From Thermomicrobiales bacterium (GTDB lineage Bacteria > Chloroflexota > Chloroflexia > Thermomicrobiales > CFX8): 64,000 nt of DNA. Within the stretch, counting starts at the first letter, position 1. Each line of letters begins with the position of its first letter. Shown here one piece after another: positions 6,732 to 34,313 of this stretch. Where the stretch lies: the NCBI GenBank assembly GCA_039810005.1, contig JBDHWD010000004.1:785-64784 (forward strand), given 5' to 3'. The notes under the pieces are model-generated. The model ran no database searches, was not told where the DNA came from, and saw nothing but the letters and a program-made list of their open reading frames with translations. Position numbers and translations under genes: made by a program.

Positions 6732-7631
6732 TCATTCATCGTCGAAGCGAAGCGTCGTCGTCAGGCCAGGGATGCCGACAACTGCGTCGGGGTATTCCTG
6801 GCTTGCGATCATAGAAACGGCAGACGGATCCTCAACCGCCGGGCTCAGATGCGTGAGCCACAGAGAGCGCACATCAGCGTCGGCTGCCAGCCGCGCGGCC
6901 TGACGCGCCGTCATGTGTCCGCGCTTGCGGGCACGCTCGGTCAGGGCGTCATCGGCGTACATCGCCTCACAGACCAGCAGGTCGCTATCGGCCACAAACG
7001 GAGTCAGCTCGTCGAAGATCGCGGTGTCGGTGACGAGTGAAACGCTTAAGCCACGCCGCGGCGGCCCGAGCACATCGTCCGGGTCCACGTCGTCAACTGC
7101 CTCTCCCGCCTGCAGACGTGACCACTGCTCGATCGGGATATCAAGCTCTCGCGCGCGCTCGGCATTGAAGCGTCGTGTCCGGGCGACATTGAGACGGTAG
7201 GCAAGGCACGGGACATGGTGCTGCGCGAGGATCGCTGATGCCTGCACGCCGCCAGGTAGATCGAAAGACTCACCACCTTCCAGCTCAGCGACGCCAAGCT
7301 CGTACGGTACACGCCCGACAATGCTGAACAGGTGTTGCACCACCTCGTGTGTGCGAGGCGGGCCGTAGATCGTGACCGGCTCGCGACGACCCGAGTGGGC
7401 GATCTGAAAGAGGATCCCCGGTAATCCAGCGACGTGATCGGCGTGCAGATGGCTCAGCAGGATCGCGCCGGTCGAGCGAAACGGCCAGCCGCTGGCGCGC
7501 CAGTTGACCTGTGTTCCCTCGCCGCAGTCCCAGAGAATCGTCTCGCCATTGACCCGAATGAGGCAGGCCGAGAGTGGACGGCCCGGCAGAGGCATCATGC
7601 CGCCGTTACCGAGAAGACAGATGTCGATCAG
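6732..7631 (-). CDS. rnz: Ribonuclease Z
   Basis: CLLGNGGMMPLP, WDCGEGTQ, SHLHADH metallo-beta-lactamase motif, exosite GPPRRG, CEAMY, GHMT, THLSP. Probable CTG start at 7631. Confidence 0.92.
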   Translation of the reverse strand: MIDICLLGNGGMMPLPGRPLSACLIRVNGETILWDCGEGTQVNWRASGWPFRSTGAILLSHLHADHVAGLPGILFQIAHSGRREPVTIYGPPRTHEVVQHLFSIVGRVPYELGVAELEGGESFDLPGGVQASAILAQHHVPCLAYRLNVARTRRFNAERARELDIPIEQWSRLQAGEAVDDVDPDDVLGPPRRGLSVSLVTDTAIFDELTPFVADSDLLVCEAMYADDALTERARKRGHMTARQAARLAADADVRSLWLTHLSPAVEDPSAVSMIASQEYPDAVVGIPGLTTTLRFDDE

Positions 7632-7691
7632 ACGATCTTCCCTCCTGCCGGGCACGTGTGCGACGACGAGCGTCGCCGCTTGAGTGTTCGG

Positions 7692-8387
7692 CTATTCGTC
7701 GTCCGCGCTGACGACGCCGGCGCGCTCGAATTCGACGCGGCGCTCCTGCGTTTGCCGGATCGCCTCGGGCGGCAGCGCCTGCGCGCCGCCGATGACATTG
7801 GCCATCAGCGAGAACTGGGCCGCTTCCTCCAGGACGAAGACGAGGTGCGTCGCCTTCTCCAGCGTATCGTCGAACGCCAGCAGGCCATGGTTGGCCAGCA
7901 GCACAGCTTTGTTTGTGTCGTTCACAACATCAATGATGTTGCTCACCGAGCGCTCCGAACCGCGCGCGCCATAGGCCGCGACTGGGACTGCCTCGTTGAT
8001 GTCGAAGCGCACCATCGCTTCGTAGGTCGGCTCGATCGGTTTGTTGGCAATGGCGAACGAGGTGACGTATGGCGAGTGGGTGTGGACGATGCCGTTGATA
8101 TCGGGGCGGCGTCGGTAGACCGCCGCGTGCATCTGAATGATCTCGTTTGATGCCGGGCCGATCTGCCCATCGAGAATGTCGCCATCAGTCGACAGCAGCG
8201 CCAGATCGGACGTCTGCAGATCGGCGAGGGCGCCGACGCCAGTCAGCAGGAAGCGATTGGAGTCCGGCAACCTGATGCTGATGTTCCCGTGCTGGGAGTG
8301 CGAGAGGACGGCGTGTCCCTCCACAAGCCGACGCGCGCTCTCAACGACTCGCTCGGCGAATGGCTGGATCTCGGGTGACCACGACAT
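7692..8387 (-). CDS. Class II aldolase/adducin family protein
   Basis: GNISIR, EIIQMH, VHTHSPY, LLANHGLL zinc ligands; ATG at 8387. Confidence 0.9.
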   Translation of the reverse strand: MSWSPEIQPFAERVVESARRLVEGHAVLSHSQHGNISIRLPDSNRFLLTGVGALADLQTSDLALLSTDGDILDGQIGPASNEIIQMHAAVYRRRPDINGIVHTHSPYVTSFAIANKPIEPTYEAMVRFDINEAVPVAAYGARGSERSVSNIIDVVNDTNKAVLLANHGLLAFDDTLEKATHLVFVLEEAAQFSLMANVIGGAQALPPEAIRQTQERRVEFERAGVVSADDE

Positions 8388-8408
8388 GGCAGGGGCTCCC
8401 TTCACGAA

Positions 8409-8443
8409 CGCGTGGCTCACAGGGTTCGATTGTGAGCCACGCG
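8409..8443. terminator. Perfect 13-bp stem-loop downstream of the GH gene (terminator or mRNA-stabilising hairpin)
   Basis: CGCGTGGCTCACA-gggttcgat-TGTGAGCCACGCG; no U tract. Confidence 0.6.
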
Positions 8444-8475
8444 CGTGTCGGGCGCAAGGAGCAATGTCCTGTGGA

Positions 8476-10221
8476 CTACTCCTTTGGCATCGTCCTGAGC
8501 GCATCGTAGGCCGGTCGCGGCGACCAGTCGCTGTTCAGCACTGCCCACGGATACTTCTCGTCGGCCGGGTCGGTGATCACGCTGTAGTTCAGGTTCCAGA
8601 CAAACATCGGGCCGATCCATGGCCACTCGGTGCGACCGATCTCGAAGGCACGCAGGAGGTAGTTGGCCTGCATCTCGTCTGAGATCGCCGCGCCGTACTC
8701 GTAGCCGGGAGCCTCGTTCGCTGTCGACCAGCCAAACTCGGTCAGCCAGATGCGCTTGCCACTGTCTCCCCAGCGCACCATGATGTCACGCAGATCCTCG
8801 ACGCGCCGGAAGTAGAACGAGTTGTCGTTGTCCCAGCCATCGGTTCCCGGGTTGTCCGGCCACGATTGATCCGGCGAGTTGTCGTTGCTGCCGGGATGTG
8901 CGCCCAGCGCATCGAAGTAGTTGGAGAGCGCGCCACCGGTGTACTCGTACGCGCGTTGCAGATACAGATCGTCGGCGATCGCGATGTCCGGCTTGTCGAG
9001 CCCGTTCGGTGTCAGCGCGCCGAACAGCACCCAGGCCGACGGATCGCCGGCACGCACGCCGTCGTGGCCCGCCTTGAGCAGCTCGACATAGGGGCCGACC
9101 TGAACCCAGCCTCCGCTGTTGGATGCCAGGTTCTGCTCATTCCAGATCTCCCAGGCCTGCACCTTGCCCTTGTAGCGGCCCGAGAGGAACTCCATGAGAT
9201 CGCGGAAGTGCGCAGTGTCGGTCGGGATGTCGCCATTGACACCGGCCCAGCCGGGGCTCGGCCCGACGACGCTGACGAGGAGCTTGATGCCGGCGGCGCT
9301 GGTCTGGGCGGTGATCCGGTCCAGACCGATCGGGTCATAAAGACCGGGGCCGACGTGCTCCAGCGAGTCCCAGCGGGCCTGAAAATGAACCCACTCGAAG
9401 CCGGCCGCCTTGACCATCTCGATGGTCTTCGCGTTGAACGCCGTCGCTTCGGGGCTGCCGTCGCCTGCCAGGAACGCGTTGAAGCCCGGTGCGGCCTGTG
9501 CAGCCTCGGCGCGGCCGCTGGTCGGATCTACAGGTGGGGCGTTCGGGTCCTGTCGCGCGACAGCATCGGCTGGCGCGGGGTGGGCGACGAGATACTCGGA
9601 ACCGAGCAGGCCGAGCAGCGTTTCGTACTGCGTTCCGGCGTACTCCGGGTGGTATTCAAAGCGTGTGCGCTCGAAGTACTGGACGGTGTGAATCTCGCCG
9701 TCACCGGCTGGTGGTGGCTGGTTGCGCTCGTCAAATTCTTCCGAGATCGGGAAGCCGAAGTTCGGCAGACCACCATGATCCTGCCAGTACGAGCGGAAGC
9801 CGAAGCAGAGGCGGTGGCCAGTCTCCGCATAGAACGTGCAGTTCTCGTCGGAATCAGTCTGGATCGGCTTGAAGGCCGCTTCGTTCTCGCGCCCTTCGGC
9901 GCGTATCGCGCCGAGGCGCTGGAGCAGGACTTCGTACTCGGTCCCGGCGTACTCCGGGTGATACTCAAAGATGGCGCGCTCGAAATATTGCTTCCAGAGG
10001 CCGTTGTCCATGAAGATACCGGTGATGGGGTAGCCAAAGATGTAGAGGCCGCCGTGCGTCTCCCAGTACTCGCGGAAGCTGCCCTGCAACCAGTAGCCGG
10101 TTGTGTCGAAATAGACGGGCTGGCGGAGATCAGCTGCCTCTGCCGAGCGCTGCGGTGGCGCGGAGATCGTTAGTGCACCAGCGAGCATCAACACGGCAAG
10201 CAGCGATGAGAACAACCTCAC
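8476..10221 (-). CDS. Secreted clan GH-A (GH5/GH39-like) glycoside hydrolase with two N-terminal Chloroflexi-type surface repeats
   Basis: Signal peptide (VRLFSSLLAVLMLAGA...AEA); two YFxxTG...GG...FGxPI...QYFER repeats; catalytic WEIWNEQN and WLTEFGW; GTG start at 10221. Confidence 0.85.
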   Translation of the reverse strand: MRLFSSLLAVLMLAGALTISAPPQRSAEAADLRQPVYFDTTGYWLQGSFREYWETHGGLYIFGYPITGIFMDNGLWKQYFERAIFEYHPEYAGTEYEVLLQRLGAIRAEGRENEAAFKPIQTDSDENCTFYAETGHRLCFGFRSYWQDHGGLPNFGFPISEEFDERNQPPPAGDGEIHTVQYFERTRFEYHPEYAGTQYETLLGLLGSEYLVAHPAPADAVARQDPNAPPVDPTSGRAEAAQAAPGFNAFLAGDGSPEATAFNAKTIEMVKAAGFEWVHFQARWDSLEHVGPGLYDPIGLDRITAQTSAAGIKLLVSVVGPSPGWAGVNGDIPTDTAHFRDLMEFLSGRYKGKVQAWEIWNEQNLASNSGGWVQVGPYVELLKAGHDGVRAGDPSAWVLFGALTPNGLDKPDIAIADDLYLQRAYEYTGGALSNYFDALGAHPGSNDNSPDQSWPDNPGTDGWDNDNSFYFRRVEDLRDIMVRWGDSGKRIWLTEFGWSTANEAPGYEYGAAISDEMQANYLLRAFEIGRTEWPWIGPMFVWNLNYSVITDPADEKYPWAVLNSDWSPRPAYDALRTMPKE

Positions 10222-10259
10222 GGACAATCCCTTCGATCTGCGGCAGCGGAGCGTCAGTT

Positions 10260-12710
10260 TCACTTCCTGTCGGCACGGGTTTGTGATCGTATCACAGCGC
10301 GTCCCACGGGCCAGCGCGGCTGGATAACCGACCAGGCGCCGAGACCAACGATAGCCAGCAACGAGACGAGCGTCATGAATGTACCAAGCGTGCGGTGCGT
10401 CGAGCGATAGGTGAAGACAACGTCGTGCGTACCTTCCGACAGCCAGACAGCGCGCAGCGCGTGGTCTGCCCGCACGACTTCGGCAGCAGCGCCATCGACC
10501 GTCGCCGACCAGCCGGGATAATACGGATCGGCCAGGACAAGGTAGCCGGCGGTCGGCAACGATGCGCGGACGACGACGCGTGTGTTGCCATACTCGACGA
10601 TGTCGGCGCTACCGCCCGTGGCTGGCGCGCTGGAGGTCAATCCCTCAACCGGCGGGTCGCTGACCACGACCGTGTCGCGGAGCGAACCGGCGTTGGTCGT
10701 CATCCACGACAGCACATGCTCGTCAGGCTGTGCGACCCAGTGCTCTGCAATCCAGACGCGCGGCATCGCGTCCGTGTTCTCGTAGATTTGCATCCAGCCA
10801 TCCATCGCCAACTGGAATCCCGACAGATCGAAGCCTGGATAGAGCTCGGCCAGCGGGCGCGTGACCGGCACGTAGCGGATGTTGAGCAGGTCGTAGATCG
10901 GCGAGCCCGGATTGCCGACGGCCAGATTGAAAAGCTCCTGATATTCCAGCGGCCAGAGGACGCTATAGCCGTTGATGCTCTGCAGGTCCCAAACGAGCGA
11001 GCCATTGATCCAGATTGAGCCAGCTTGATCGGGATAGATACGGAACTGATCCGGCTCGGCCGCAGTCTGACGGTCAAGCAACCAGCGGACGAACGGGTCC
11101 TCCGGCGCTGCGGCCCAGTCGGGCCCGATGTACGAGTCCGGCTTGCTCGCGTGATCGGCGTAGACGCGGTTGGCGTTGGCCAGCCCGACGTCAGCCCCGA
11201 CGATCATGACCAGCGCGATGACCAGCGCCGAAGCCGGGAAGCGCCAGATGACGCGGGCGTAGACGACGACAATCGCCAGCAGCGCCACGACAATGGCGAC
11301 GAGCAGGTCGATCTCAATGTTGCGCAGCCGATCGAGCCAGACTGCCTCGTCAGCGCCGTTACGCCGTAGCGCGGCGAATGCGAGCCCGAGGACGAGCAAC
11401 CCAGTTCCGACCAGCAGGAATCGGCCCAGCATCCGCGCTGCCAGAACACCATCGGCGCGATAGCGCTCCTCGAGAGCGCGGACGCCGAAGGCGGCCAGCA
11501 GACCGATGCACAGCGTGACAAGGGCAATGAAGTTGCCGGGCCGGCGAACATGATCGAAGCCGGGCATGATCTCGAAGACGAGCCGATAGATCAGGCCGTG
11601 GCTACCGAACGCCAGCACCAGGCTGATCGCTCCAGCCGCGAGAATGCCGCCAACCAGTCGACGATGCTGGCGGTCAGCACACGCAACGCCGAGGACGGCC
11701 AGGAAGAGCGGGACGAGACCGAGGTACATGTTCGTCTCGGCCGGATCGCCGGTCGCCCAGTAGAGCGCCGGATCGTTCGGTGAGAAGTAATCCGGCGCGA
11801 TGGCCGTCAGTAGCCAGAGGGGCCTGAATGACGAGCCGCTAGCCTCGACCCAGCTCAGACCGGCGCGCGATGTCTGGCTGCTCAGCTCCCAGGATGGCAG
11901 CAGCTGAATGGCAGCCAGCCCGGTTCCGAGCAAGCCAACAGCGACCGCTGCGCCAAACGCCCAGGCGGCGCGGCGCGGGTCATTGCGCCAGGTGAATAGC
12001 GCGACCGTCACGCCCAGCAAGCCAAGCAGATAGCCAGATTGCAGGATGGTGAGCGCATGACCGGCAAGAACGAGCATGCCGAAGGCACCTGCCCCGAGCG
12101 CGACCCAGAGCAGATTCCGGCGGCGGACTGCCTGGTGATAGGCGAAGAGCATCCAGGGCAGCCAGCTGAGCGACGACAGCGGCGACAGGTGTGGCACATG
12201 CCAGGCGAAGAAGCCCCCGAACGCAAACGTGAGTCCCGCTACCAGCCCACCGGCCCGCGAGCCGGTCAGCGAGCGAGCCAGCGCATACGCGCCAAGCGCC
12301 GCCCAGAGGACGTGCAGCGTGAGCTGCACCTCCATACGGAAATACGGCAGAAAGTCGCCGCGCGTCAGGAAGTGCATCGCAGCGTTCGGCGGGTAGAAGA
12401 GCGCCGAGAGCGGATCGGCGATGATCGGATAGCCGCTGAGGATGTTGGGTGTCCACCATGGCGAGTCACCAGCCGCAAGCGCGCGGTGAATGAATGCCTG
12501 GAACATGTAGTGCTGGTCGATCAGGTCGAACGGGATGAAATGGTCACGCGAGATGAGGACCGGGCGGAAGAACAGGAGCCAGAAGAGAATCAGCAACGCA
12601 ACATCGAGCGCAGTCAGGCCGATTGCGCGCATCGGGAAGCGCGACGCCGGCGGGTCATCGCCAGCCTCACGCCGGGGAATTCGCTGGTAACGCTCGGCAG
12701 GATAGCTCAA
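10260..12710 (-). CDS. YfhO-family multi-pass membrane protein (GT-C-type glycosyltransferase)
   Basis: FDLIDQHY, PWWTPNILSGYPIIADP...FYPPN, many TM helices, QLLPSWE, INGYS, LLNIRY, LVLADPYYPGWSATVDG...ALRAVWLSEGTHDVVFTY. Start uncertain (12710 TTG or 12632 ATG). Confidence 0.85.
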   Translation of the reverse strand: MSYPAERYQRIPRREAGDDPPASRFPMRAIGLTALDVALLILFWLLFFRPVLISRDHFIPFDLIDQHYMFQAFIHRALAAGDSPWWTPNILSGYPIIADPLSALFYPPNAAMHFLTRGDFLPYFRMEVQLTLHVLWAALGAYALARSLTGSRAGGLVAGLTFAFGGFFAWHVPHLSPLSSLSWLPWMLFAYHQAVRRRNLLWVALGAGAFGMLVLAGHALTILQSGYLLGLLGVTVALFTWRNDPRRAAWAFGAAVAVGLLGTGLAAIQLLPSWELSSQTSRAGLSWVEASGSSFRPLWLLTAIAPDYFSPNDPALYWATGDPAETNMYLGLVPLFLAVLGVACADRQHRRLVGGILAAGAISLVLAFGSHGLIYRLVFEIMPGFDHVRRPGNFIALVTLCIGLLAAFGVRALEERYRADGVLAARMLGRFLLVGTGLLVLGLAFAALRRNGADEAVWLDRLRNIEIDLLVAIVVALLAIVVVYARVIWRFPASALVIALVMIVGADVGLANANRVYADHASKPDSYIGPDWAAAPEDPFVRWLLDRQTAAEPDQFRIYPDQAGSIWINGSLVWDLQSINGYSVLWPLEYQELFNLAVGNPGSPIYDLLNIRYVPVTRPLAELYPGFDLSGFQLAMDGWMQIYENTDAMPRVWIAEHWVAQPDEHVLSWMTTNAGSLRDTVVVSDPPVEGLTSSAPATGGSADIVEYGNTRVVVRASLPTAGYLVLADPYYPGWSATVDGAAAEVVRADHALRAVWLSEGTHDVVFTYRSTHRTLGTFMTLVSLLAIVGLGAWSVIQPRWPVGRAVIRSQTRADRK

Positions 12711-12725
12711 GCGTCTGCGCCTGGT

Positions 12726-12776
12726 TGGTCGTGGCGCGGAGCGGCAGCATGCTGCCACTCCGCTGGTCGCCGACCA
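12726..12776. promoter_or_regulatory. Intercistronic stem-loop between the GH lipoprotein and YfhO-like genes
   Basis: GCGGAGCGGCAGC-at-GCTGCCACTCCGC (12736-12763; the single mismatch is a G-U pair on the minus-strand RNA), plus outer TGGTCG/CGACCA. Confidence 0.55.
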
Positions 12777-12785
12777 TCACGAAGC

Positions 12786-14102
12786 TCAGGGCTTCGGCAT
12801 CGCCCGCAGGGCGTCATAGGCTGGGCGTGGTGAGAAGTCACCATTGACCACCGACCACGGGTACTTTTCGTCGTCCGGCTCGGTGACAACCGAGAAGTTC
12901 AGGTTCCAGACGAACAACCCCTCACACCATTCGGCCCAGTCGGTGCGAGCAATCTCGAACGCGCGCACCAGATACTCGGCCTGCTGCTCTTCGCTGACAT
13001 CTGCGCCGTACTCGTAACCAGCGGCCTGGTTATCGGTCGTCCAGCCGAACTCGGTGATCCAGGCCGGGCGCGTATCGCCGAATTCCGTCATCAGGTCGTG
13101 CAGCTGCTCGACGCGCCGGAAGTAGAAGCTGGCGTCCTGCGACCAGTCGCCAGTGCCCGGATTGTCTGGATACATCAGGTCCGGCGCATTGTTCGTCGCG
13201 TTGGCGTGCATGCCCATGACATCAAAGTACTGAGTGTACGACCCACCCTGGTACTCGTAAAACGAGCGCAGGTATTCGACATCGTCAATGGCAACTGCCG
13301 GATCGTTGACGCCGGTCGGAGTCAGGCCGCCGAAGACAACGAGCGCCGATGAATCTGCCGCCTTGACGCCCTGATAGCCGGCCTGCAACAGCTCGGCATA
13401 CTGGCCGACATCCACATTGCCGCCGAAGGTACTAGCGAGGTTCTGCTCGTTCCAGATCTCCCACGCCTGAACCTTGCCCTTGTAGCGATCAGCCATGAAG
13501 AACATGAAGTTCTGCCAGTCAGCGACGTTACCGACGAGCTGCTCGCCGCTCGGGTCCTTCGCCCAGTCGGGCGGATTCGACACGGTGGCGAGGATCTTCA
13601 CGCCGGCGGCTGAGTACTGATCGACGATGTTGTCAATCGGCAGCGGGTCCCACCAGTCCGGCGCGCGCTGGATCGCGCCCCAGTAGAAGTGCAAGCGCAC
13701 CCAGTTGAAGCCAGCATCCTGGACGAGAGCGATCGTCTCCTGGTTGTGCTGGATCTCGGACTCGTTACCCCAGGCAAAGACGTTGAAGCCGTAGGCGACA
13801 TCATCCGGGGCGACCGGCGCATCGACCGGCTCCGACGTCGCGGCAGTCGTCGGGCTCGCCTCAGCCGGTTGCGTTGCTTCGGCGCTATCCTCAGTCGCTG
13901 TCGCCTCGCCCGTCGGCTCAGCAGCGGTCGTTGAGGTCGCTTCTGCTTCCGCTTCTGTTGCCGCTGGTGAGGACTGTTCAGCGACCGTCGGCTCAGCCGT
14001 CGCAGTCGGATCGTCGTCACCACCACCGCAAGCAGCAATCGCCGGAATCAGGAGCATCGCGGCAAACATAATCAGCGCCGCACGACGCAGATTGATCGAC
14101 AT
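12786..14102 (-). CDS. Lipoprotein clan GH-A (GH5/GH39-like) glycoside hydrolase with Ala/Thr/Glu/Pro linker
   Basis: Lipobox IAAC-GGG after MSINLRRAALIMFAAMLL; low-complexity linker; WEIWNEQN and WITEFGW; GGGAG SD before ATG 14102. Confidence 0.87.
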   Translation of the reverse strand: MSINLRRAALIMFAAMLLIPAIAACGGGDDDPTATAEPTVAEQSSPAATEAEAEATSTTAAEPTGEATATEDSAEATQPAEASPTTAATSEPVDAPVAPDDVAYGFNVFAWGNESEIQHNQETIALVQDAGFNWVRLHFYWGAIQRAPDWWDPLPIDNIVDQYSAAGVKILATVSNPPDWAKDPSGEQLVGNVADWQNFMFFMADRYKGKVQAWEIWNEQNLASTFGGNVDVGQYAELLQAGYQGVKAADSSALVVFGGLTPTGVNDPAVAIDDVEYLRSFYEYQGGSYTQYFDVMGMHANATNNAPDLMYPDNPGTGDWSQDASFYFRRVEQLHDLMTEFGDTRPAWITEFGWTTDNQAAGYEYGADVSEEQQAEYLVRAFEIARTDWAEWCEGLFVWNLNFSVVTEPDDEKYPWSVVNGDFSPRPAYDALRAMPKP

Positions 14103-14228
14103 GAAATCGGGACTCCCCACGCTCACAAACGAGTGATTCGCACAGTGCTGTCCGTACAGAGACGGACGCCGGAGTATACCGAAGCCTGCCGAGAGCTGGA
14201 CGCGGGAGGTGGGGATGTGACTGCAGGA

Positions 14229-14416
14229 GTACTGTGGTTCCAAAAATGTAGGGGCGTATCGCATACGCCCGGTTAGACCGCTACTACCTCCGCGCGTGCC
14301 GGACGGGTTGGCCGGTGCAGGGGTGTGTGCAATGCGGACGCATGCCGCGCGCCTGCGCCGCCGTTGTGCCAGCCGGGCGTATGCGATACGCCCCTACATT
14401 TCCGTGACCGCAGTAC
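14229..14416. repeat. Inverted pair of GTAG-type REP sequences (REPIN/BIME-like doublet)
   Basis: GTAGGGGCGTATCGCATACGCCC at 14248-14270 and its exact reverse complement at 14375-14397; each has a GGGCGTAT-cgc-ATACGCCC hairpin; flanks also partly inverted. Confidence 0.85.
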
Positions 14417-14459
14417 GCAAACGCTGTTTGAGTAACCAACCAGCGCATCGAGCAGTGAT

Positions 14460-15320
14460 TCAGGCTTGTGAGTCATCGGCCTCCAGCGCTGCAATCACCT
14501 CGCGTGACATGGCGAAGCCGTGTTCCTGTTCGGGGAATTGACCGGCGCGGACTTCGGCTGCGTAGGTCGCGAAGGCATCGCGCATCGTTGTCGCCAGATC
14601 GGCGTAGCGCTTGGCGAAGCGCGGGATGAAGCGGTCGAACGAGCCGAGCAGATCGCCATTGACCAGTACCTGCCCGTCGCACTCGACGCCTGCGCCGATT
14701 CCGATGGTCGGGATCGACAGGCGCGAGGTGATGATGCGGGCCAGTTGCCGTGGTACGGCCTCGACGACGACAGCGTAGGCGCCTGCTGCCTCGACGGCCA
14801 GAGCGTCGTCAATCACGCCGCGTGCGGCATCGAGCGAACGGCCCTGCACCTTGAAGCCGCCCAGCGCGGCGGAAGCCTGCGGCGTCAGGCCGATGTGCGC
14901 CATGACCGGGATACCGCAGCGAACGATCGCCTCGATGCGGCTGGCCATTGTCTTGCCGCCTTCGAGCTTAACGGCGTCCGCACCGCCCTCCTTCATCAGC
15001 CGACCGGCGTTTTCAACCGCCTGTGCCTTGCTGACGTGATAGGACATGAATGGCAGATCGGCGACAACATGCACCGTCTCAACCCCACGCATGACAGCGC
15101 GGGTGTGATGGATCATGTCGTCCATCGTTACCGGGATCGTCGACTCGTAGCCCAGAACGATCATGCCGAGTGAGTCGCCGACGAGGATGGCGTCGAGACC
15201 GGCCGCCTCGACGGCGCGGGCGGTCGGGTAATCGTAGGCGGTCACCATCGCGATCCGCTCAGAACCTTTCATCGCGCGGAGCGCAGGGGCAGTGATCTTC
15301 TCGCGTTGTGCTTCAGCCAT
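14460..15320 (-). CDS. panB: 3-methyl-2-oxobutanoate hydroxymethyltransferase
   Basis: MVTAYD, ILVGDSLG, ADLPFMSY, AVKLEGG, HIGLTPQ, PTIGIGAG, DGQVLV; GAGGAG SD before ATG 15320. Confidence 0.97.
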   Translation of the reverse strand: MAEAQREKITAPALRAMKGSERIAMVTAYDYPTARAVEAAGLDAILVGDSLGMIVLGYESTIPVTMDDMIHHTRAVMRGVETVHVVADLPFMSYHVSKAQAVENAGRLMKEGGADAVKLEGGKTMASRIEAIVRCGIPVMAHIGLTPQASAALGGFKVQGRSLDAARGVIDDALAVEAAGAYAVVVEAVPRQLARIITSRLSIPTIGIGAGVECDGQVLVNGDLLGSFDRFIPRFAKRYADLATTMRDAFATYAAEVRAGQFPEQEHGFAMSREVIAALEADDSQA

Positions 15321-16284: not shown

Positions 16285-17519
16285 TAGCCCGACTCCTGGA
16301 GATCAAAGAACCGTAGCGCCGCCCCAGCGTAGGTGCGGGCGTAGCGCACTACCTCATCGAGCGCGATCCACTCATCAGCCTGATGCGGCAGAGTCGTCGC
16401 TCCGGGGCCGTAGGTGACGAGCGGAAGGCGCGTTGCGGCCCAGAAGATCGTACCGTCCGTCGAGCCGGGAACCCCACCGAATGGCGGCGTCTCGCCAGTC
16501 TCGGCTTTGTGCGCGTCACTGACGGCGGCGACAATCGCTGCATCGGGGGACGTCTCGGTCGCCGGGCGATCGTCGAGCCATTCAATCGCCATTCCGGCGC
16601 CGGGAATGCGCTGCGCAGCACGTTGCAAACGCTCAGCTATGAGCGCCCGGAGCTCGGCGTGGTTGTGGTCTGCAGTGGTGCGGACGTCCAGCAGCAGCTC
16701 CGCGGCGGACGGGATGACGTTCGCCTGCGCCGGCTCGCCAGCCAGAGCAACGGTCGGCGTCAGCGAGAAGTGACCCAGCAGGGAATGTGGCAGGCTGGCA
16801 GAGCGCACCTCCTGCTCGATCCGGCGGCACTCGACGACGACCTCACCGAGGGCGGCCACCGGGTTGATACCCTGCTCGGGCATGCAGCCGTGCGCCATCC
16901 GGCCGTGCAGCGTCACACGCGCGCGAAGTGCACCTTTCTGGGCGATGCAGAGGCGATCGCCTTCCGGCTCGCAGATGATCGCGGCAGCAACGCCATCAAG
17001 CTCACCATCGGCGACGAACGCCTTCGCGCCGGTCATCATGCCCTCTTCATCAACGAGAACCGCCAGGCGGACGGTGCCGCCGTACTCGCAGCCGGAGAGC
17101 TGCAATGCCCGCGCGGCGAAGAGCATGGCGACGAGGCCGCCCTTCATATCACACGCGCCGCGCCCATACAGCCGACCATCGACGATCGCAGCACCGAATG
17201 GATCGACCGACCAGGCCGACCGATCTCCGGCGGTCACGACATCGGTGTGGCCCTCGAGCACCAGCACCGGCCCGGGTCTACGACCCGGCAGATCAACCAC
17301 GAGATTCGGGCGACCGGGCGCGACCTCGCGGCGGCGGTAGCCCATCCCCCAGCTATCGAGCAGATCGGCGACGAAATCAGCCGCGGCACGCTCGTTGCCG
17401 TCAAGTCGGTCAGGGTCGTAGACGCTGCGGATGCGCACCAGCTGCTCTAGCGTCTTGACCAGCGCCTGCTCGTCGATCATTCGCTGGGCAGCCGAAATGC
17501 GATCTGTGAGTGCGGTCAT
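16284..17519 (-). CDS. M20 family metallo-amidohydrolase (ArgE/DapE-like)
   Basis: EGHTDVV, GRGACDMKGG, VDEEG, ICEP, HGRMAHG, GSTDG, PHQADE; stop overlaps the panE start (TAATG). Confidence 0.9.
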   Translation of the reverse strand: MTALTDRISAAQRMIDEQALVKTLEQLVRIRSVYDPDRLDGNERAAADFVADLLDSWGMGYRRREVAPGRPNLVVDLPGRRPGPVLVLEGHTDVVTAGDRSAWSVDPFGAAIVDGRLYGRGACDMKGGLVAMLFAARALQLSGCEYGGTVRLAVLVDEEGMMTGAKAFVADGELDGVAAAIICEPEGDRLCIAQKGALRARVTLHGRMAHGCMPEQGINPVAALGEVVVECRRIEQEVRSASLPHSLLGHFSLTPTVALAGEPAQANVIPSAAELLLDVRTTADHNHAELRALIAERLQRAAQRIPGAGMAIEWLDDRPATETSPDAAIVAAVSDAHKAETGETPPFGGVPGSTDGTIFWAATRLPLVTYGPGATTLPHQADEWIALDEVVRYARTYAGAALRFFDLQESG

Positions 17520-17652
17520 CGTGGTGGACTCAATCGCGGGGACATGGGCGATGCACCTCATTCCGTCCGGCAATTCGCGGTATGGTAGCACGACACCTGC
17601 GAGTACACTGATTATGGTGATCAATCGAGAGACACCAGGGTGGAGAGAAAGC

Positions 17653-18186
17653 TTGGCAGAGCGACGATTCGATTTTGATGATGTTGACCGTTCGGACGCG
17701 GAAGCGATAGGTGAGCCGGGTCAGCGAACGTTCCGCATGATCTTCGGAGCGGCCTCCGATACCGTCGTCCTGTGGTTAGAGAAGCAGCAGCTTCAGGCGC
17801 TCGGCATGGCGTTCGAGCAGATGATCGCGCAGCTGCGCGCAGCCGGTGTCGCCGCAGCGCGGGTCAGCGAGATCGAGCCAGATCCAGTCGGGCCGACGCC
17901 AGTTGTGAACGCCGAATTCCACGTCGGTCGGCTGGCGGTCGGGTTCGACGAGGAGCGCTCGCGGATCACGCTGTTCGTCCATGACATTGAGGCAGAAGAG
18001 GAGGATCCGCCGAGCGTTGTCGTTCGGCTGGAGCTCCAGCGTGCCCGCACGATGGCGACGCAGATCGAGCGCGTTGTGTCAGCCGGTCGTCCCACGTGCC
18101 CGCGCTGCGGTGCGCCGATCGGGCCCGAAGGACACGTCTGCCCACACGACAATGGCCACTTCCCACACCTGCTCGGGACGGTCTAA
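17653..18186 (+). CDS. DUF3090 family protein with C-terminal Zn-ribbon-like CPxCG...HxCP
   Basis: AIGEPGQRTF, LEKQQLQAL, EFHVGRLAVGFD, VVSAGRPTCPRCGAPIGPEGHVCPHDNGH; TTG start after GGAGAG. Confidence 0.85.
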   Translation: MAERRFDFDDVDRSDAEAIGEPGQRTFRMIFGAASDTVVLWLEKQQLQALGMAFEQMIAQLRAAGVAAARVSEIEPDPVGPTPVVNAEFHVGRLAVGFDEERSRITLFVHDIEAEEEDPPSVVVRLELQRARTMATQIERVVSAGRPTCPRCGAPIGPEGHVCPHDNGHFPHLLGTV

Positions 18187-18193
18187 CAACCGT

Positions 18194-18616
18194 TCATGCG
18201 AAGGCGTGCGCAGCCGCGTCCGCCTCGGCCAGCAGCGCGACCATGCGCAGCGTCTGACGCGCCATGCTCCTAACAAGCAGGCTGCCAATGAACGCGAAGC
18301 GCGAGCCTCGCTCGATCGCGAGCCGGACACGCGTCCGGCTCGCGTCGTTTTCGTCGATCTGCCACCGCCAACGAACGCCGCGAGCGAACCCTTTGATGGC
18401 CTGAACCTCGATGCAATTGCTCGCCGGAGCAGTTAGCCGGCAGACGCTCGTGAGCGGGACACCGTGCCAGGTCAGGCATACGCGATAGTCGTCAGGACCA
18501 ACCCGCTTGGCTGACTGAACGTGCGGAAACAGCCCCGGCCAGGCCTCCACGTCCCGAACAAGACGCTGGACCGCCAGCGCCGGCGCAGCAATCTCGGCGG
18601 TCAGCTCGGCACGCAC
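18194..18616 (-). CDS. SRPBCC/polyketide cyclase-like (START-fold) protein
   Basis: LVRDVEAWPGLFPHVQS and GVRWRWQI pattern; GTG 4 nt after the ggt stop. Confidence 0.7.
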   Translation of the reverse strand: MRAELTAEIAAPALAVQRLVRDVEAWPGLFPHVQSAKRVGPDDYRVCLTWHGVPLTSVCRLTAPASNCIEVQAIKGFARGVRWRWQIDENDASRTRVRLAIERGSRFAFIGSLLVRSMARQTLRMVALLAEADAAAHAFA

Positions 18617-18620
18617 GCGC

Positions 18621-20201
18621 TTACCAGCCGGCCGCAATCCCATCCGCACGCGGATCGGACGCGCCGCCGTAGGCTCCGCGCTCGCGATCGATGCGGATGC
18701 AGTGCGCGTGGCCCATCGCCGAATCCCACGCGTTGCCGACGACGACGCCGTGGCCCCGGGCGCGCAGATCAGCGATGGTCGCCTCGCCGACGCGCGGCTC
18801 GACGCGCACCCAGCGTGTGCGATCCGCATCTGCGCCGGACACCCAGCGCGGCGTCTCGATGACCTGCTGCGGCTCCAGCTCGAAATCGACCATGCCGAGC
18901 AGCATCTGAAGCTGCACCTGCGCCTGAGCGTCAGCGCCCATCGTCCCGAACACCCACTCCGGCTGGCCGTCGCGCAGCAGCATGGCCGGGATCAGCGTGT
19001 GATACGGACGCTTACCCGGCTGCAAGCAGTTGAGGTGGCTCGGATCGACTGAGAAGCCGCGACCGCGATTGTGGAACAGGACGCCCGCGCCCGGTGCAAG
19101 AACGCCCGAGCCGAAATTATTGTAGACGCTCTGGATCAACGAGACGGCCATGCCGTCGCGATCGACGACGCAGAGGTAGATCGTGTCGCCGTCCTGGAAG
19201 TCGCTGCCGTCGGGTCCGGTGCGCTCCAGGTCGATCTCGGCCCGCATCCGTGCCGCCACGTCCTTGTCGAGGAACTGCTCGACCTTTGGATCGGCCATGC
19301 GCGGGTCGGCAACGTACTGGTCGCGATGAGCGAACGCCTTGAGCTTCGCCTCGACCCAGGCGTGAATGCCCTTGCCGGTCGTGTGGCCGAACTCCGTCAC
19401 CGGCCAGCCCTCGACGATGTTGGCCATTAGCAGAACCGTCGGGCCCTGCGTGTTCGGCGGCATCTCGACGATGTCGTAGCCACGATAGGACGTTGAGATC
19501 GGTTCGACCCACTCCGGCTCGAACGCCGCGAAATCATCGAGCGTGATCGCCGAGCCGGCGTCCTGGAGCGTGGCGACCATGTCTGCCGCCACCTCGCCCT
19601 CGTAGAAGGCCCGCGCGCCTTCGATGCCGATGCGCTCCAGCGTCTTCGCCAGAGCCGGCTGGCGCATGATCTCGCCGGTACGTTTCGGTCCACCGAAGAC
19701 GCCTCGCGTACCCGGGTGGCCGTCCACGACATCGCGCAGACGCACGCACGCCTCGGCGAAGTTGCTGGCGATCGGCGCGCCGTCGCGGGCGTATGCAACA
19801 GCCGCAGACAGCACGCGATCGAGCGAGCGCGAGCCGAAACGATCCTGCAGCGCGGCCCAGCCGCCGACTGTTCCCGGCACGGTGACGGTCAGCCCACCGC
19901 GCTCGGGGATCTCATCGTGTCCGGCTGCGTGCAGATAGTCGAGGCTCATGCCGGCCGGCGCGGGCCCGGACGAGTTCAGGCCGAACACGCGTCGCTCGCC
20001 GGGGTGCCAGACCATCGCGAAGAGATCGCCGCCGGTGTGACACTGGTGCGGATAGACGACATTGAGCACAGCGTTGGCCGCAATCGCGGCATCGACGGCA
20101 TTGCCGCCCTCCTGCAGAATGCGCAAGCCCGCCTGGCTGGCGAGATAGTGCGGTGAAGCGACTACCCCATTCGTCGCCCACGTCGTCGGTCGTCCAGTCA
20201 C
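18621..20201 (-). CDS. ggt: Gamma-glutamyltransferase family protein (no signal peptide)
   Basis: GGNAVDAAIA, TVPGTV, PPNTQG, nucleophile Thr in GDTIYLCVVD, SLIQS, KRPYHTLIP, SDPRADG. Confidence 0.93.
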   Translation of the reverse strand: MTGRPTTWATNGVVASPHYLASQAGLRILQEGGNAVDAAIAANAVLNVVYPHQCHTGGDLFAMVWHPGERRVFGLNSSGPAPAGMSLDYLHAAGHDEIPERGGLTVTVPGTVGGWAALQDRFGSRSLDRVLSAAVAYARDGAPIASNFAEACVRLRDVVDGHPGTRGVFGGPKRTGEIMRQPALAKTLERIGIEGARAFYEGEVAADMVATLQDAGSAITLDDFAAFEPEWVEPISTSYRGYDIVEMPPNTQGPTVLLMANIVEGWPVTEFGHTTGKGIHAWVEAKLKAFAHRDQYVADPRMADPKVEQFLDKDVAARMRAEIDLERTGPDGSDFQDGDTIYLCVVDRDGMAVSLIQSVYNNFGSGVLAPGAGVLFHNRGRGFSVDPSHLNCLQPGKRPYHTLIPAMLLRDGQPEWVFGTMGADAQAQVQLQMLLGMVDFELEPQQVIETPRWVSGADADRTRWVRVEPRVGEATIADLRARGHGVVVGNAWDSAMGHAHCIRIDRERGAYGGASDPRADGIAAGW

Positions 20202-33900: not shown

Positions 33901-34122
33901 GACGGCGACCGCGCCAACCGAGGCGGTCTTGAAGTAGCCATCGGACACGTTCAGCCACGAGGCACCGGCATCGTCGGTCTTCCAGATGCCACCGGAGCAG
34001 GCACCAAAGTAGTAGGTCATTGGCTGGCTGGTGTGCCCGGCGACAGCGACGCTGCGTCCTCCGCGGAACGGTCCCGCCTGCCGCCAATGCAAACCCGCAA
34101 CAAGATCATGAATGTTGGACAT
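30958..34122 (-). CDS. Vps10/sortilin-like BNR (Asp-box) repeat beta-propeller protein, putative glycosyl hydrolase
   Basis: WRQAGPFRGGR start; many S/TxDxGxS/TW Asp-boxes (KTDDAGASW, RSDDAGESW, RTLDGGATW, KTTDGGDTW, RSDNGGDTW); PHGDNH, GAQQDN, GTHGRSFW; GGGAGG SD before ATG 34122. Confidence 0.88.
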   Translation of the reverse strand: MSNIHDLVAGLHWRQAGPFRGGRSVAVAGHTSQPMTYYFGACSGGIWKTDDAGASWLNVSDGYFKTASVGAVAVAESAPNVVYAGMGESCIRGNVSHGDGVYRSDDAGESWRHLGLETTRHIARVRVHPNNPDHVYVAAFGHAFGPHEDRGVYRTLDGGATWEKVLYRDERTGACDLSMDATNPRTLYAAMWDAQRSPWSLVSGGPGSGIFKTTDGGDTWIELTDNPGLPQGLKGRIGVTVSPARPQRVWAIVEAKEGGLFRSDNGGDTWTRVSDNPELRQRPWYYMHIFADPVDPDTVYVLNLGMWKSTDAGTSFIQIPTPHGDNHDLWIDPANTKRMIEANDGGACVSFDGGVTWSSIYNQPTAQLYHVTTDTQFPFRIYGAQQDNTTITIPSYSDRGAITEDDTWPVGGGESGYIAVRPDDPDIIFAGSYATRMTRYDHGARQEVDITVWPEDPIGYGAEAMKYRFQWTFPIVLSPHDPDVLYVTGNHVFRSTNGGQQFAPISPDLTRGDPETLGPSGGPITKDNVSTEYYGTIFAFAESPVQPGILWAGSDDGRINVSRDGGESWTDVTPSELPDWALISIIDASPHDPATAWVAATRYKLDDFRPYLLRTTDYGATWQMVTSGIPDDDFTRVVREDPAVPGLLYAGTETGLYVSWDAGDSWQQLSGGAGGNGRRALPVVPIHDLIVHDNSLVIGTHGRSFWLLDDLAPVREWRAADGDAPATLFPIATTYRIKPVNSWGRSGTVGYKSYVNTGGSQVMGIVHAAEDGGTRFELLNAGENPDLGVTVHYALSGEKPAQDISLSFWTAEGEQIQRFALAEDQSKQPAEMRLRGEPGLHRFVWNMRYPDATKIEGAALSLYWGGSTIGPVVAPGQYEARLEVGGNTYRQPFEVKRDPRVSATDDDLIAQRDLLLQIRDKLGAVHEAVLASRKLREQIDAWAVRLRDAGKDDLIPTLKQASEQLLAAEGELVESRSKGAADSFNYPPKVNSKLASLQGTVAYGDSHPPQQTYEVFDVLAAQADENLAALQKVVDAVTKDLNDKIAAAGVPAIG

Positions 34123-34313
34123 CAGTGAAATCCTCCCATCGGTGCCACCCAGCCGGTTGAGGCGATGGTAGTCGTGAGTGCTACGCTGGTCAACCACGCC
34201 CACTCACATTCCACCGTGACTCAACCCTTGCTTGTGTCGTTGCACAATCAATGCTATTGTGGCAGCGCTCCGGCAAATCGCACTCATGCATCTAAAGACT
34301 GGGAGGTAGGGCG

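Follow-up and report, generated by a model that had tools for sequence, protein, structure and literature searches.

PslG of Pseudomonas aeruginosa is a periplasmic enzyme, and a C-terminal beta-sandwich packed on the barrel is a feature of PslG and of family GH39. It is described as an endo-beta-glucosidase of GH39 type whose gene lies in the psl polysaccharide cluster (PMC11912335), and is represented in the PDB by entries 5bx9, 4zn2, and 9g17. In Firmicutes, the multi-component transmembrane glycosylation systems CsbB/GtcA/YfhO, as outlined in PMC8035078, decorate LTA or WTA with GlcNAc by a GT-A/GT-C pairing, in which the YfhO GT-C works with a C55-P-sugar-forming GT-A (a CsbB-like GT2) and a GtrA-type flippase. 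The LGFP domains of mycoloyltransferase A (MytA) of Corynebacterium glutamicum are reported to interact with peptidoglycan-arabinogalactan (PMC11299179). A full-text literature search found no paper joining YfhO with Chloroflex* and none joining PslG with Thermomicrobi*. To our knowledge, little is understood of the Chloroflexota cell envelope, no system for wall-glycan synthesis or turnover has been tied to genes there, and teichoic acids are not known in this phylum.

The window, i.e. the whole stretch of 64,000 nucleotides analysed here, contains three minus-strand genes in the same orientation, which encode a lipoprotein glycoside hydrolase (GH-A; the clan of that name is always written as clan GH-A), a YfhO-family GT-C, and a secreted glycoside hydrolase (GH-B), in this order. 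Their features are as follows.

12786..14102, minus strand: GH-A, a lipoprotein PslG-like glycoside hydrolase of clan GH-A (translation, Pfam PF00150, PslG as the best PDB sequence match)
14028..14102, minus strand: signal peptide of GH-A with lipobox, …LLIPAIAA-C79 (read off the sequence)
13794..14027, minus strand: T/A/E/P/S-rich low-complexity linker of GH-A, about 78 residues, connecting the lipid anchor to the catalytic domain (translation)
12789..13793, minus strand: catalytic (beta/alpha)8 domain of GH-A, putative acid/base E273 (WNEQN) and putative nucleophile E405 (TEFGW) (HMMER against PslG, BLASTP against GH-B)
10260..12758, minus strand: YfhO-family GT-C glycosyltransferase (Pfam PF09586, hydropathy scan)
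8476..10263, minus strand: GH-B, a secreted PslG-like glycoside hydrolase with N-terminal repeats (translation, PslG match, AF2 model, Foldseek)
9577..10125, minus strand: two LGFP-like repeats of GH-B (residues ~47-229), a putative wall-binding module (AF2 model and PDB fold match)
8479..9492, minus strand: catalytic (beta/alpha)8 domain of GH-B, E376 (WNEQN) and E509 (TEFGW) (PslG alignment, homologue conservation, secondary structure of the model)

The corresponding open reading frames lie at 12786-14264, 10260-12758, and 8476-10263 of the minus strand. The stop of GH-A is separated from the GTG start of the YfhO gene by a 27-nt gap, and the YfhO stop overlaps the GTG start of GH-B by 4 nt, confirming the tight, co-oriented packing and the gene order described in the earlier note. 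The ATG at 14102 opens 'MSINLRRAALIMFAAMLLIPAIAAC', which is a signal peptide with a lipobox, whereas the longer GH-A frame (to 14264) crosses a terminator-like palindrome at 14270-14252; hence 14102 is a likelier start than 14264. In this Thermomicrobiales bacterium, the three genes probably form an operon of three extracytoplasmic carbohydrate enzymes. RNA-library contigs from three studies contained the locus; contigs of X5 bridged both the GH-A/YfhO and the YfhO/GH-B junction, and those of X17 and X20 the former. This is weak evidence for co-transcription, given that a contig need not represent a single transcript and that DNA may be present in RNA libraries.

Both hydrolases belong to clan GH-A, are of the retaining type, and are paralogues of each other; their closest characterised relative is PslG. 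BLASTP between the two proteins gave 188 identities in 367 positions (51%, E = 5e-122), far beyond chance, and every motif previously listed as a sign of paralogy was found in both, namely RYKGKVQAWEIWNEQNLAS, SFYFRRVE, TEFGW, GYEYGA, FVWNLN, and DEKYPW...SPRPAYDALR.MPK. The Pfam profile search gave a weak match of GH-A to PF00150 (GH5; E = 5.3e-11) and no match for GH-B. PslG was the best PDB sequence match for both GH-A (E = 1.9e-11) and GH-B (E = 5.3e-11). The two catalytic Glu residues, said in the earlier note to be kept in both enzymes, indeed aligned with WNEPN and TEWGW of PslG (E273 and E405 in GH-A, P0001; E376 and E509 in GH-B, P0003), and E376 and E509 were invariant across 46 GH-B homologues; the acid/base and nucleophile roles of each Glu are assigned by analogy only. 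Structure prediction, suggested earlier as a check, was run on GH-B and gave a (beta/alpha)8 barrel of clan GH-A (AF2, pLDDT 88.7) nearest to PslG and GH39. Foldseek placed PslG entry 5bx9 at the top (E = 1.8e-17, 26% identity), followed by GH39 entry 5jvk (3.1e-15) and by further GH39, GH5, and GH10 entries at about 1e-10. The PslG-type C-terminal beta-sandwich was absent, both hydrolases ending about five residues past the last barrel helix (H584-591 of the 595 residues in the GH-B model), and the structural alignment of GH-B with PslG comprised 349 columns against the 414-residue PslG chain.

The replacement of the usual NEP by NEQN had also been pointed out. NEQN was present in both hydrolases, but its Q was only the majority residue among the 46 GH-B homologues and lay outside the columns conserved at 90% or more. 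This motif, unusual in comparison with NEP, the conserved retaining-type two-Glu machinery, and the anchoring of the enzymes in the envelope would fit hydrolases that act mainly as transglycosylases, cross-linking or grafting wall glycans through the retaining mechanism. Such a role is highly improbable in our judgement, since the Q is not strictly conserved and PslG, their closest characterised relative, is described in PMC11912335 as an endo-beta-glucosidase that acts by hydrolysis.

The two paralogues carry different anchors, in agreement with the earlier note, and both anchor types are found throughout the class. In GH-A, the lipobox is followed by GGGDDD and fits the pattern [LVI][ASTVI][GAS]C, and lipidation is predicted. 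By regular expression, a lipobox was found in 12 of 15 short-form, non-GH-C proteins from 21 sources, with variant boxes (LVGC, FPAC) in two more; GH-A orthologues had the same architecture of lipobox and linker, as did the short member of the pair in other orders. Residues ~55-145 of GH-A resembled N-terminal signal/linker stretches found in 27 further open frames of this genome (30 matches, the remaining three being GH paralogues). GH-B carries a Sec signal peptide, and its two repeats each span about 90 residues. The segment containing them (residues ~42-241) gave no Pfam match, PF08310 included, even at E ≤ 10. The AF2 model of the repeat module (pLDDT 95.6) showed a helix and a small antiparallel sheet in each unit, and the only PDB fold matches at E ≤ 0.001 were MytA of C. 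glutamicum, 6swz (4e-4, probability 0.99) and 6sx4 (6.8e-4); a second chain of 6sx4 followed at 1.1e-3, and the next matches had E values of at least 0.096. In the closest Atlas cluster, 13% of the members have PF08310, which is a lead only. Both the form with a lipobox and T/A/E/P-rich linker and the form with LGFP-like repeats were conserved across class Chloroflexia, and binding of the latter to the wall is putative.

The hallmark of GT-C enzymes is a polytopic membrane domain whose first extracytoplasmic loop bears a conserved acidic residue. The central protein of the cluster (P0002), which had been called a YfhO-type GT-C, conformed to this description. It matched PF09586 with 52.2 bits against a cut-off of 28.5 (E = 4.7e-14), most strongly in its C-terminal part (residues 723-794), while the N-terminal half matched profile positions 6-311 weakly (E = 0.044). 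The hydropathy scan indicated about 10 transmembrane segments in residues 46-521, a soluble domain at ~522-793, and a last transmembrane segment at 794-812. D78, located in the first outer loop 14 residues past the first segment, was invariant in all 12 orthologues and paralogues, as were W102, G109, P111, D115, and P116, with Q82 and Y84 conserved at 90% or more. Sugar transfer by this protein is accordingly predicted from its family and topology.

Next, the distribution of the genes was examined in related genomes. The GH family was present in 41 of 41 genomes of the order Thermomicrobiales and in 231 of 251 sampled genomes of class Chloroflexia. It was also present in complete genomes likened to Chloroflexus, Roseiflexus, and Herpetosiphon, with 40-60% identity across orders and homologues named from Nitrolancea. 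A genome may contain up to 12 copies with varied N-termini. Database entries label the family 'cellulase family glycosylhydrolase' or 'beta-galactosidase', and some homologues are named 'PslG' at JGI. What is old and widespread is the GH pair itself: the repeat form together with the lipoprotein form, frequently in tandem, throughout class Chloroflexia. The database names and the number and N-terminal variety of copies, as in expanding nutrient CAZyme families, would suit a different explanation, in which the genes are adjacent but independent: the hydrolases, anchored at the surface, would attack foreign polysaccharides, such as the beta-glycans of matrix or plant material present in sludge, as nutrients or to move through biofilm, YfhO would decorate an unrelated wall polymer, and the linkage would be a lineage-specific accident. 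The occurrence of the source organism in sludge metagenomes favours this explanation, as does a compost study listing nine GH39 in a Sphaerobacter bin deemed a degrader (PMC3716776). We consider it possible but doubtful, because the family is nearly universal and well conserved, Nitrolancea included, and because PslG, the best relative, belongs to a biosynthesis cluster (PMC11912335).

A synteny search for GH/YfhO/GH triplets had been suggested in the earlier note, and the linkage proved to be conserved in part: a GH adjoined the YfhO orthologue in 8 of 13 distinct loci (G000, G003, G001/L024, L068, L071, G002, G011/L018, and L027), but the exact order was seen only in the window's own genus. 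Even within this group the arrangement varied, the triplet being split across two contigs in G003, only its first half preceding a contig end in G001, and GH-B lying 10 kb off on the opposite strand in G002, of the same genus. G005 had a GH pair without YfhO. With the triplet seen in one genus only and with pairs and YfhO orthologues also occurring apart, it is the GH pair that shows the deeper conservation. Five of the 13 YfhO-orthologue loci lacked a GH, and in four of these the orthologue was convergent to a Wzm/Wzt-type ABC-2 exporter pair. No GH was found in 34 more distant YfhO-like loci within the flanks covered; five complete genomes had no YfhO match within 21 kb of a GH, and the Chloroflexus-like complete genome had the GH pair and no YfhO-family match at all. 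The missing linkage in 5 of 13 loci and in all other orders examined again favours independence of the genes. In G029, a decayed YfhO remnant lay between GH-A and GH-B in the same order as in the window. We infer that the YfhO gene joined an older GH pair in one sub-lineage of Thermomicrobiales. Since the genomes are related, the locus counts are not independent and represent roughly three or four distinct arrangements.

An ArnC/PgfS-like GT2 gene followed GH-B or the GH pair in six loci of sister Thermomicrobiales. The order was FhaA>FHA>GH-B>GH-A>YfhO>GT2 in L027, all co-oriented, and FHA>GH-B>GH-A>GT2 in G197, followed by a gene for a 669-aa polytopic protein (a putative second GT-C); in one of its nearest Atlas clusters (rank 7), 44% of the members carry PMT_2. 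G029, G021, G098, and G124 had GH-B>GT2. The best NCBIfam matches of the GT2 were ArnC, PgfS (E ~4e-19), dolichyl-phosphate hexose transferase, and PpgS, all below cut-offs. This recurrence of the pair beside parts of the same kind of glycosylation pathway (GT2, YfhO, and second GT-C), in at least three arrangements, rescues the functional link and argues against independence. In the window itself, tblastn gave no match to the ArnC/PgfS-like GT2; no GT2 and no flippase is encoded in its first 34 kb, and the three-gene cluster contains no GT2, flippase, or polymer-synthesis gene. ArnC/PgfS-like GT2 genes occur elsewhere in the same genome, on C5 and C117, and GtrA (PF04138) was not found in this 84% complete genome. 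An FhaA>FHA>GT2 arrangement without any GH also exists in this genome, so that the GT2 may be tied to the FHA genes and not to the hydrolases. With respect to nutrition, no sugar-transporter or regulator neighbours were seen in the Thermomicrobiales loci examined, which supports the earlier statement that these enzymes are not nutrient cellulases; however, an ABC importer lay about 0.5 kb downstream of the GH pair in the Chloroflexus-like genome, in favour of the independent reading.

PMT-type enzymes are of the protein O-mannosyltransferase kind. The PMT_2-like character of the G197 protein, the PgfS match of the GT2, and the T/A/E/P/S-rich stretch past the GH-A lipobox, with its counterparts in 27 other frames, would be compatible with protein O-glycosylation, in which the Ser/Thr/Pro-rich linkers of surface lipoproteins, that of GH-A included, would receive their sugars from a YfhO-type GT-C akin to PgfM1/PgfM2 of Streptococcus mutans, and the hydrolases would trim or recycle the glycans. 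Indeed, the only NCBIfam matches of P0002 were PgfM2 and PgfM1 (E = 1.6e-6 and 2e-6), far below cut-offs and spanning only about 70-80 C-terminal residues. This short span, the Wzm/Wzt neighbours of the YfhO orthologue, which point to a polymer, and the teichoic acids given in PMC8035078 as targets of characterised YfhO enzymes make O-glycosylation unlikely.

Taken together, our main proposal, to which we give an even chance, is that the hydrolases trim or remodel a wall glycan which the cell makes itself and decorates from polyprenyl-phosphate sugars. An ArnC/PgfS-like GT2 encoded elsewhere, for which G000:C5:26267-27157 is a candidate, would make the polyprenyl-phosphate sugar donor; the YfhO GT-C would take the sugar off this donor and add it, outside the membrane, to a wall-associated glycopolymer. 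The exporter of this polymer is possibly the Wzm/Wzt-type ABC-2 transporter found beside the YfhO orthologue in other genomes. Both hydrolases would act by cutting or trimming on this self-made glycan or on one connected with it, one enzyme near the membrane and the other bound in the wall, in a role comparable to that of PslG in Psl synthesis. Counting against the proposal are the lack of GT2, flippase, and polymer-synthesis genes in the cluster, the non-obligatory YfhO linkage, the possible tie of the GT2 to the FHA genes, the ABC importer in the Chloroflexus-like genome, and the distance from PslG (26% identity, no beta-sandwich). Such a set of enzymes could be termed a 'build-and-edit' system, as in the earlier note. 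More tentatively, and with less confidence, the pair may be a Chloroflexia-wide two-tier system (lipid and linker on one form, LGFP-like repeats on the other) that remodels the envelope glycan, either an undescribed wall glycopolymer or a surface glycoprotein glycan, built or decorated by GT2 and GT-C enzymes (YfhO type here, PMT_2-like elsewhere).

If the main proposal is correct, the GH family of 231 of the 251 sampled Chloroflexia would be envelope housekeeping enzymes and not 'cellulases' or 'beta-galactosidases', and inferences of carbohydrate degradation from metagenomes would be corrected. The L027 and G197 clusters (GH pair, GT2, and GT-C) would define a testable pathway in the cultivable Sphaerobacter and Thermomicrobium, and the rule that a hydrolase is encoded with glycan synthesis, known for PslG, would extend to GT-C-based extracytoplasmic glycosylation. 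If the two-tier reading is also true, the Thermomicrobiales clusters would be the first genetic handle on that polymer.

In comparison with known systems, the hydrolases resemble PslG in the (beta/alpha)8 barrel, the aligned catalytic Glu pair, and the best sequence and fold match, as well as in being encoded beside glycan-building enzymes, as PslG is according to PMC11912335. Unlike PslG, they end at the barrel without the beta-sandwich, have NEQN in place of NEP, are anchored by a lipid and linker or by LGFP-like repeats, and come as a paralogue pair; furthermore, the partner is a GT-C here, whereas PslG belongs to a Wzx/Wzy-type cluster. The repeats of GH-B share with the MytA LGFP domain a fold of one helix and a small antiparallel sheet per unit, but they do not match PF08310, they comprise two units, both about 90 residues long and bearing an additional N-terminal hairpin, where MytA has five of about 54, and the module is N-terminal instead of C-terminal. 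The low TM-score (0.29) is due to this different arrangement of the repeats. In contrast to the Firmicutes systems, neither a GT2 nor a GtrA-type flippase is present in the cluster, GtrA was also not found in the rest of the 84%-complete genome sequence, and the YfhO gene is flanked by glycoside hydrolases, which are not mentioned in the available text of PMC8035078. P0002 nevertheless resembles the Firmicutes enzymes in scoring above the PF09586 cut-off, in its polytopic form with a large outer domain, and in the invariant Asp past the first transmembrane segment. The YfhO orthologue of L027, followed by a GT2 resembling polyprenyl-phosphate-sugar synthases, likewise recalls the GT-A/GT-C pairing outlined for Firmicutes in PMC8035078.

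The cluster comprises three closely packed, co-oriented genes, in which the gene of a YfhO-family GT-C protein stands between those of two differently anchored glycoside hydrolases (GHs):

12786-14264 (ORF), minus strand: GH-A (P0001), lipoprotein or short form, with signal peptide and lipobox, linker, and catalytic domain
10260-12758, minus strand: YfhO protein (P0002), with a Pfam YfhO match
8476-10263, minus strand: GH-B (P0003), repeat-bearing or long form, with Sec-type signal peptide, two repeats of ~90 residues, and catalytic domain

The intergenic spacing was 27 nt for GH-A/YfhO and -4 nt for YfhO/GH-B. Judging from the sequence, the translation start of GH-A is most likely the ATG at 14102, which yields 'MSINLRRAALIMFAAMLLIPAIAAC', a signal peptide with a lipobox, followed by a linker of ~78 residues rich in T, A, E, P, and S and then by the catalytic domain; the longer frame (to 14264) crosses a terminator-like palindrome at 14270-14252. 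Housekeeping genes flank the cluster, namely panB, panE, and genes for an M20 peptidase, DUF3090, and gamma-glutamyltranspeptidase upstream, and those for a class II aldolase and a metallo-beta-lactamase (MBL)-fold protein downstream. The aldolase, MBL-fold, gamma-glutamyltranspeptidase, and DUF3090 genes (6732-8504 and 17431-20201 in the window) are also the conserved surroundings of GH-A in genomes of family f3 (loci L061 and L063). Because this flanking set is shared, GH-A appears to be at its ancestral position.

No promoter-like site was found on the minus strand, and terminator-like sites within the three genes were weak. An Rfam scan of 13900-14600, upstream of GH-A, gave no riboswitch; its single match, to a miRNA (E 0.62), was at chance level. 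The region between panB and GH-A contains two inverted copies of a palindromic element (14245-14271 and 14374-14399; core GGGCGTAT[G/C]CGATACGCCC), separated by ~100 nt. With up to two mismatches allowed, the genome has 93 copies of the core, often paired at 90-130 nt spacing, and the element resembles a REP/MITE-type repeat. RNA-library contigs showed a depth peak at the pair, and some variants omitted the ~100 nt between the copies.

By sampled words, 97-99% of the window was present in four runs filed as RNA-Seq/cDNA, namely X5, X7, and X13 of study P4 and X15 of study P8, for which the RNA nature is only guessed; ~40% was present in metatranscriptome runs from two additional studies. Contigs spanned the GH-A/YfhO junction in X5 (10338-14254), X17 (12550-13521), and X20 (12579-13773), and the YfhO/GH-B junction in X5 (8657-10335), while X17, X18, and X20 left parts of the stretch uncovered. 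These data are compatible with an expressed operon and nothing stronger, since contigs are not single transcripts and RNA libraries may hold DNA.

The motifs that the earlier note had listed as common to the two hydrolases were all found in both proteins, and the catalytic domains share 188 of 367 positions (E 5e-122). Pfam gave only a weak GH5 'Cellulase' match for P0001 (5.3e-11) and no match for the GH-B catalytic domain even at E≤10; NCBIfam gave no usable match for either. In a PDB-wide sequence search, PslG was the top match of both hydrolases (1.9e-11 for P0001 and 5.3e-11 for P0003), followed for P0001 by the Bacteroides GH39 enzyme 5jvk (4.8e-7). The fold search with the AF2 model of P0003 (pLDDT 88.7) likewise returned PslG first (E 1.8e-17, 26% identity) and 5jvk second (3.1e-15), with further GH39, GH5, and GH10 barrels at ~1e-10. 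The catalytic domains correspond to residues 158-492 of GH-A and 258-595 of GH-B. Both catalytic Glu of each hydrolase, E273 and E405 in GH-A and E376 and E509 in GH-B, aligned in register with those of PslG, and the GH-B pair was invariant among 46 homologues. PslG is described as a retaining endo-beta-glucosidase whose gene lies within the Psl biosynthesis cluster (PMC11912335). With the catalytic pair intact, transglycosylation by the GHs, which the earlier note had offered as a variant, is conceivable; we regard it as very improbable. Homologues from Thermomicrobiales, Sphaerobacter, Thermomicrobium, Thermorudis, and Nitrolancea carry differing database names ('cellulase family glycosylhydrolase', 'beta-galactosidase', and 'polysaccharide biosynthesis protein PslG'); Sphaerobacter thermophilus and Thermomicrobium roseum are among the species with orthologues. 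By these homologues, the organism belongs to Thermomicrobiales. Elsewhere in the window (30958-34203, minus strand), a 1081-aa protein with Sortilin-Vps10 and BNR/Asp-box repeats is encoded; a compost study reported a Sphaerobacter 'BNR/Asp-box repeat' GH74 as the most abundant over-represented glycoside hydrolase of its supernatant proteome (PMC3716776).

The GH-B repeats, at residues ~47-229, had no Pfam match even at E≤10. When they were folded alone with the family alignment (pLDDT 95.6), the only PDB fold matches at E≤0.001 were two entries of the LGFP-bearing mycoloyltransferase A (MytA) of C. glutamicum, 6swz (the C-terminal LGFP domain; E 4e-4) and 6sx4 (6.8e-4), the next matches being at 0.096 or above. 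As a lead only, the nearest Atlas cluster had PF08310 in 13% of its members. Since the LGFP domains of MytA reportedly interact with peptidoglycan-arabinogalactan (PMC11299179), it is reasonable by analogy to call the repeats a putative 'wall-binding' module.

P0002 matched Pfam YfhO with E 4.7e-14 (52.2 bits; cut-off 28.5). A hydropathy scan indicated about ten transmembrane segments in residues 46-521, a soluble region at 522-793, and a last transmembrane segment at 794-812. D78, 14 residues past the first transmembrane segment, was invariant among 12 orthologues and paralogues. The NCBIfam search gave PgfM1/M2 alone, C-terminal and sub-threshold, and the PDB sequence search gave no match.

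The GH family was present in all 41 genomes sampled from the order (1-12 copies each) and in 231 of 251 sampled from the class, including 36 of 48 in family f4 and none of eight in f9; both tallies take in unpublished genomes (G031, G128, G071, G051, G163, and G179), and because the counted genomes are related, the counts are not independent events. The pair itself occurs class-wide, and the pairing of two anchor types is old. Co-localisation in the class was judged from a 41-genome subsample and five complete genomes. In three other orders or families, complete genomes (G129, G132, and G146) carry a tandem of a repeat-bearing GH followed by a lipoprotein GH with a T/P-rich linker, and the complete genome G149 carries a tandem of two repeat forms. 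Close members (E≤1e-45) were found in 34 of the 41 subsample genomes, of which 13, by our count, had a same-strand tandem: all those of f8 (7/7), f12 (4/4), and f13 (2/2), and none of f7 (0/7), f10 (0/7), genus g11 (0/5), or f11 (0/1). In the window's genome, the YfhO gene separates the two copies.

In a maximum-likelihood tree of 33 catalytic domains, the Thermomicrobiales short forms formed a supported clade (12 rows, 100/99), and the short and long forms of other orders clustered together (99/93). This clustering would imply either more than one duplication or homogenisation of tandem copies. One early duplication giving rise to separate 'all-lipo' and 'all-repeat' clades was rejected, as the tree splits Thermomicrobiales from the other orders first. 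A third, divergent clade (~30% identity), with an N-terminal transmembrane anchor and a long C-terminal extension, has members on contig C257 of the window's genome (L003) and in genus g4 (L020, G006:C22; L021, G012:C429). In g4, this GH lies ~2 kb from a PAP2_3>YfhO-paralogue pair, with an opposite-strand ParA/NUBPL gene between.

The spread of YfhO orthologues is much narrower than that of the GH family. In the order sample, orthologue-grade YfhO (≥47% identity) was confined to the window's own genus (G001-G003) and G011. Pooled genome and metagenome scans gave 13 distinct orthologue loci, L065-L067 being the same population as the window's genome (G000) and counted with it. A GH adjoined YfhO in eight (G000, G003, G001/L024, L068, L071, G002, G011/L018, and L027) and was not adjacent in five (L025/L070, L026, L069, L028, and L029). 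The order GH-A>YfhO>GH-B was seen in the window and G003, YfhO>GH-B in G011, and GH-B>GH-A>YfhO in L027; G002 has GH-A>YfhO, with GH-B 10 kb off on the opposite strand, still beside the aldolase and beta-lactamase-fold genes. The available flanks of the 34 YfhO-like loci that are more distantly related (L030-L051 and L072-L083) contained no GH. No YfhO match lay within 21 kb of any GH in five complete genomes, and a Chloroflexus-like complete genome has the GH pair and no YfhO-family match. In the complete genome G029, a YfhO-orthologue remnant separates GH-A from GH-B, matching the gene order of the window (L016 7645-8090; G029:C2, ~386.1-386.6 kb; residues 43-190, 46-56% identity, one in-frame TAG); its sister genome G021 has none. 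This remnant suggests that the linkage is older than the f1/f3 split and later decayed.

Within Thermomicrobiales, the hydrolases are repeatedly sited beside GT2/GT-C genes, in gene orders that come from greedy ORF picking, so that some loci may still hide genes. In f3, GH-B or the pair lies between FHA-domain genes and an ArnC/PgfS-like glycosyltransferase gene (GT2), as GH-B>GT2 in G029, G021, G098, and G124 and as FHA>GH-B>GH-A>GT2>669-aa protein in G197. The Thermomicrobiaceae MAG locus L027 reads FhaA>FHA>GH-B>GH-A>YfhO>GT2, co-oriented with gaps of 16-235 nt. In the window's genome, a FhaA>FHA>GT2 block lies on contig C5 with no GH. The top NCBIfam matches of GT2, all below cut-off, were ArnC (1e-26 to 7e-23), PgfS (~4e-19), dolichyl-phosphate hexose transferase, and PpgS. 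Such enzymes place a sugar on polyprenyl phosphate for use by a GT-C, in line with the described GT-A/GT-C logic (PMC8035078).

The 669-aa protein of G197 (L058 8117-10126, G197:C63) has at least eight hydrophobic segments, no Pfam or NCBIfam match, and no BLASTP similarity to P0002. Its Atlas neighbours were Chloroflexota hypotheticals, one cluster (rank 7) having PMT_2 in 44% of members, and it is by this lead alone that the protein is possibly a second GT-C type. A 40%-identical relative is encoded in the window's genome (C254:1570-2628). In four of the five orthologue loci lacking an adjacent GH, YfhO and a Wzm/Wzt-type ABC-2 pair are convergently oriented (Wzt_C match in L026); the window's genome has such a pair on C36, with no YfhO gene. 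Such a pair stands beside a class A beta-lactamase-like/D-Ala-D-Ala carboxypeptidase-like gene in G000:C36:1534-4883 (L064) and in L029 (8387-11831), where the YfhO orthologue completes the group.

The earlier note had proposed a build-and-edit module for a surface glycan. In this reading, the YfhO enzyme would transfer sugar from a polyprenyl-phosphate donor to a wall polymer, and the two hydrolases, at different depths of the envelope, would act on that polymer or on another self-made glycan connected with it; we give it an even chance. The repeated siting beside GT2/GT-C genes speaks for it; against it, the window's cluster itself contains neither a donor-making nor a flippase gene. That the hydrolases are independent of YfhO and act on foreign glycans accords with the many relatives that keep the GHs while the YfhO linkage is lost; set beside the gene orders of f3 and L027, it seems to us rather doubtful. 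A linker such as that of GH-A would offer a substrate for O-glycosylation of protein linker regions, a reading that we hold to be improbable. Literature searches found no description of a dual-anchor PslG-like pair conserved in Chloroflexia, of its association with GT2/GT-C glycosylation genes, or of the GH/YfhO/GH arrangement. Taken singly, the proteins are new representatives of kinds already known. GH-A and GH-B terminate with the barrel and thus lack the C-terminal beta-sandwich of PslG and GH39 enzymes.
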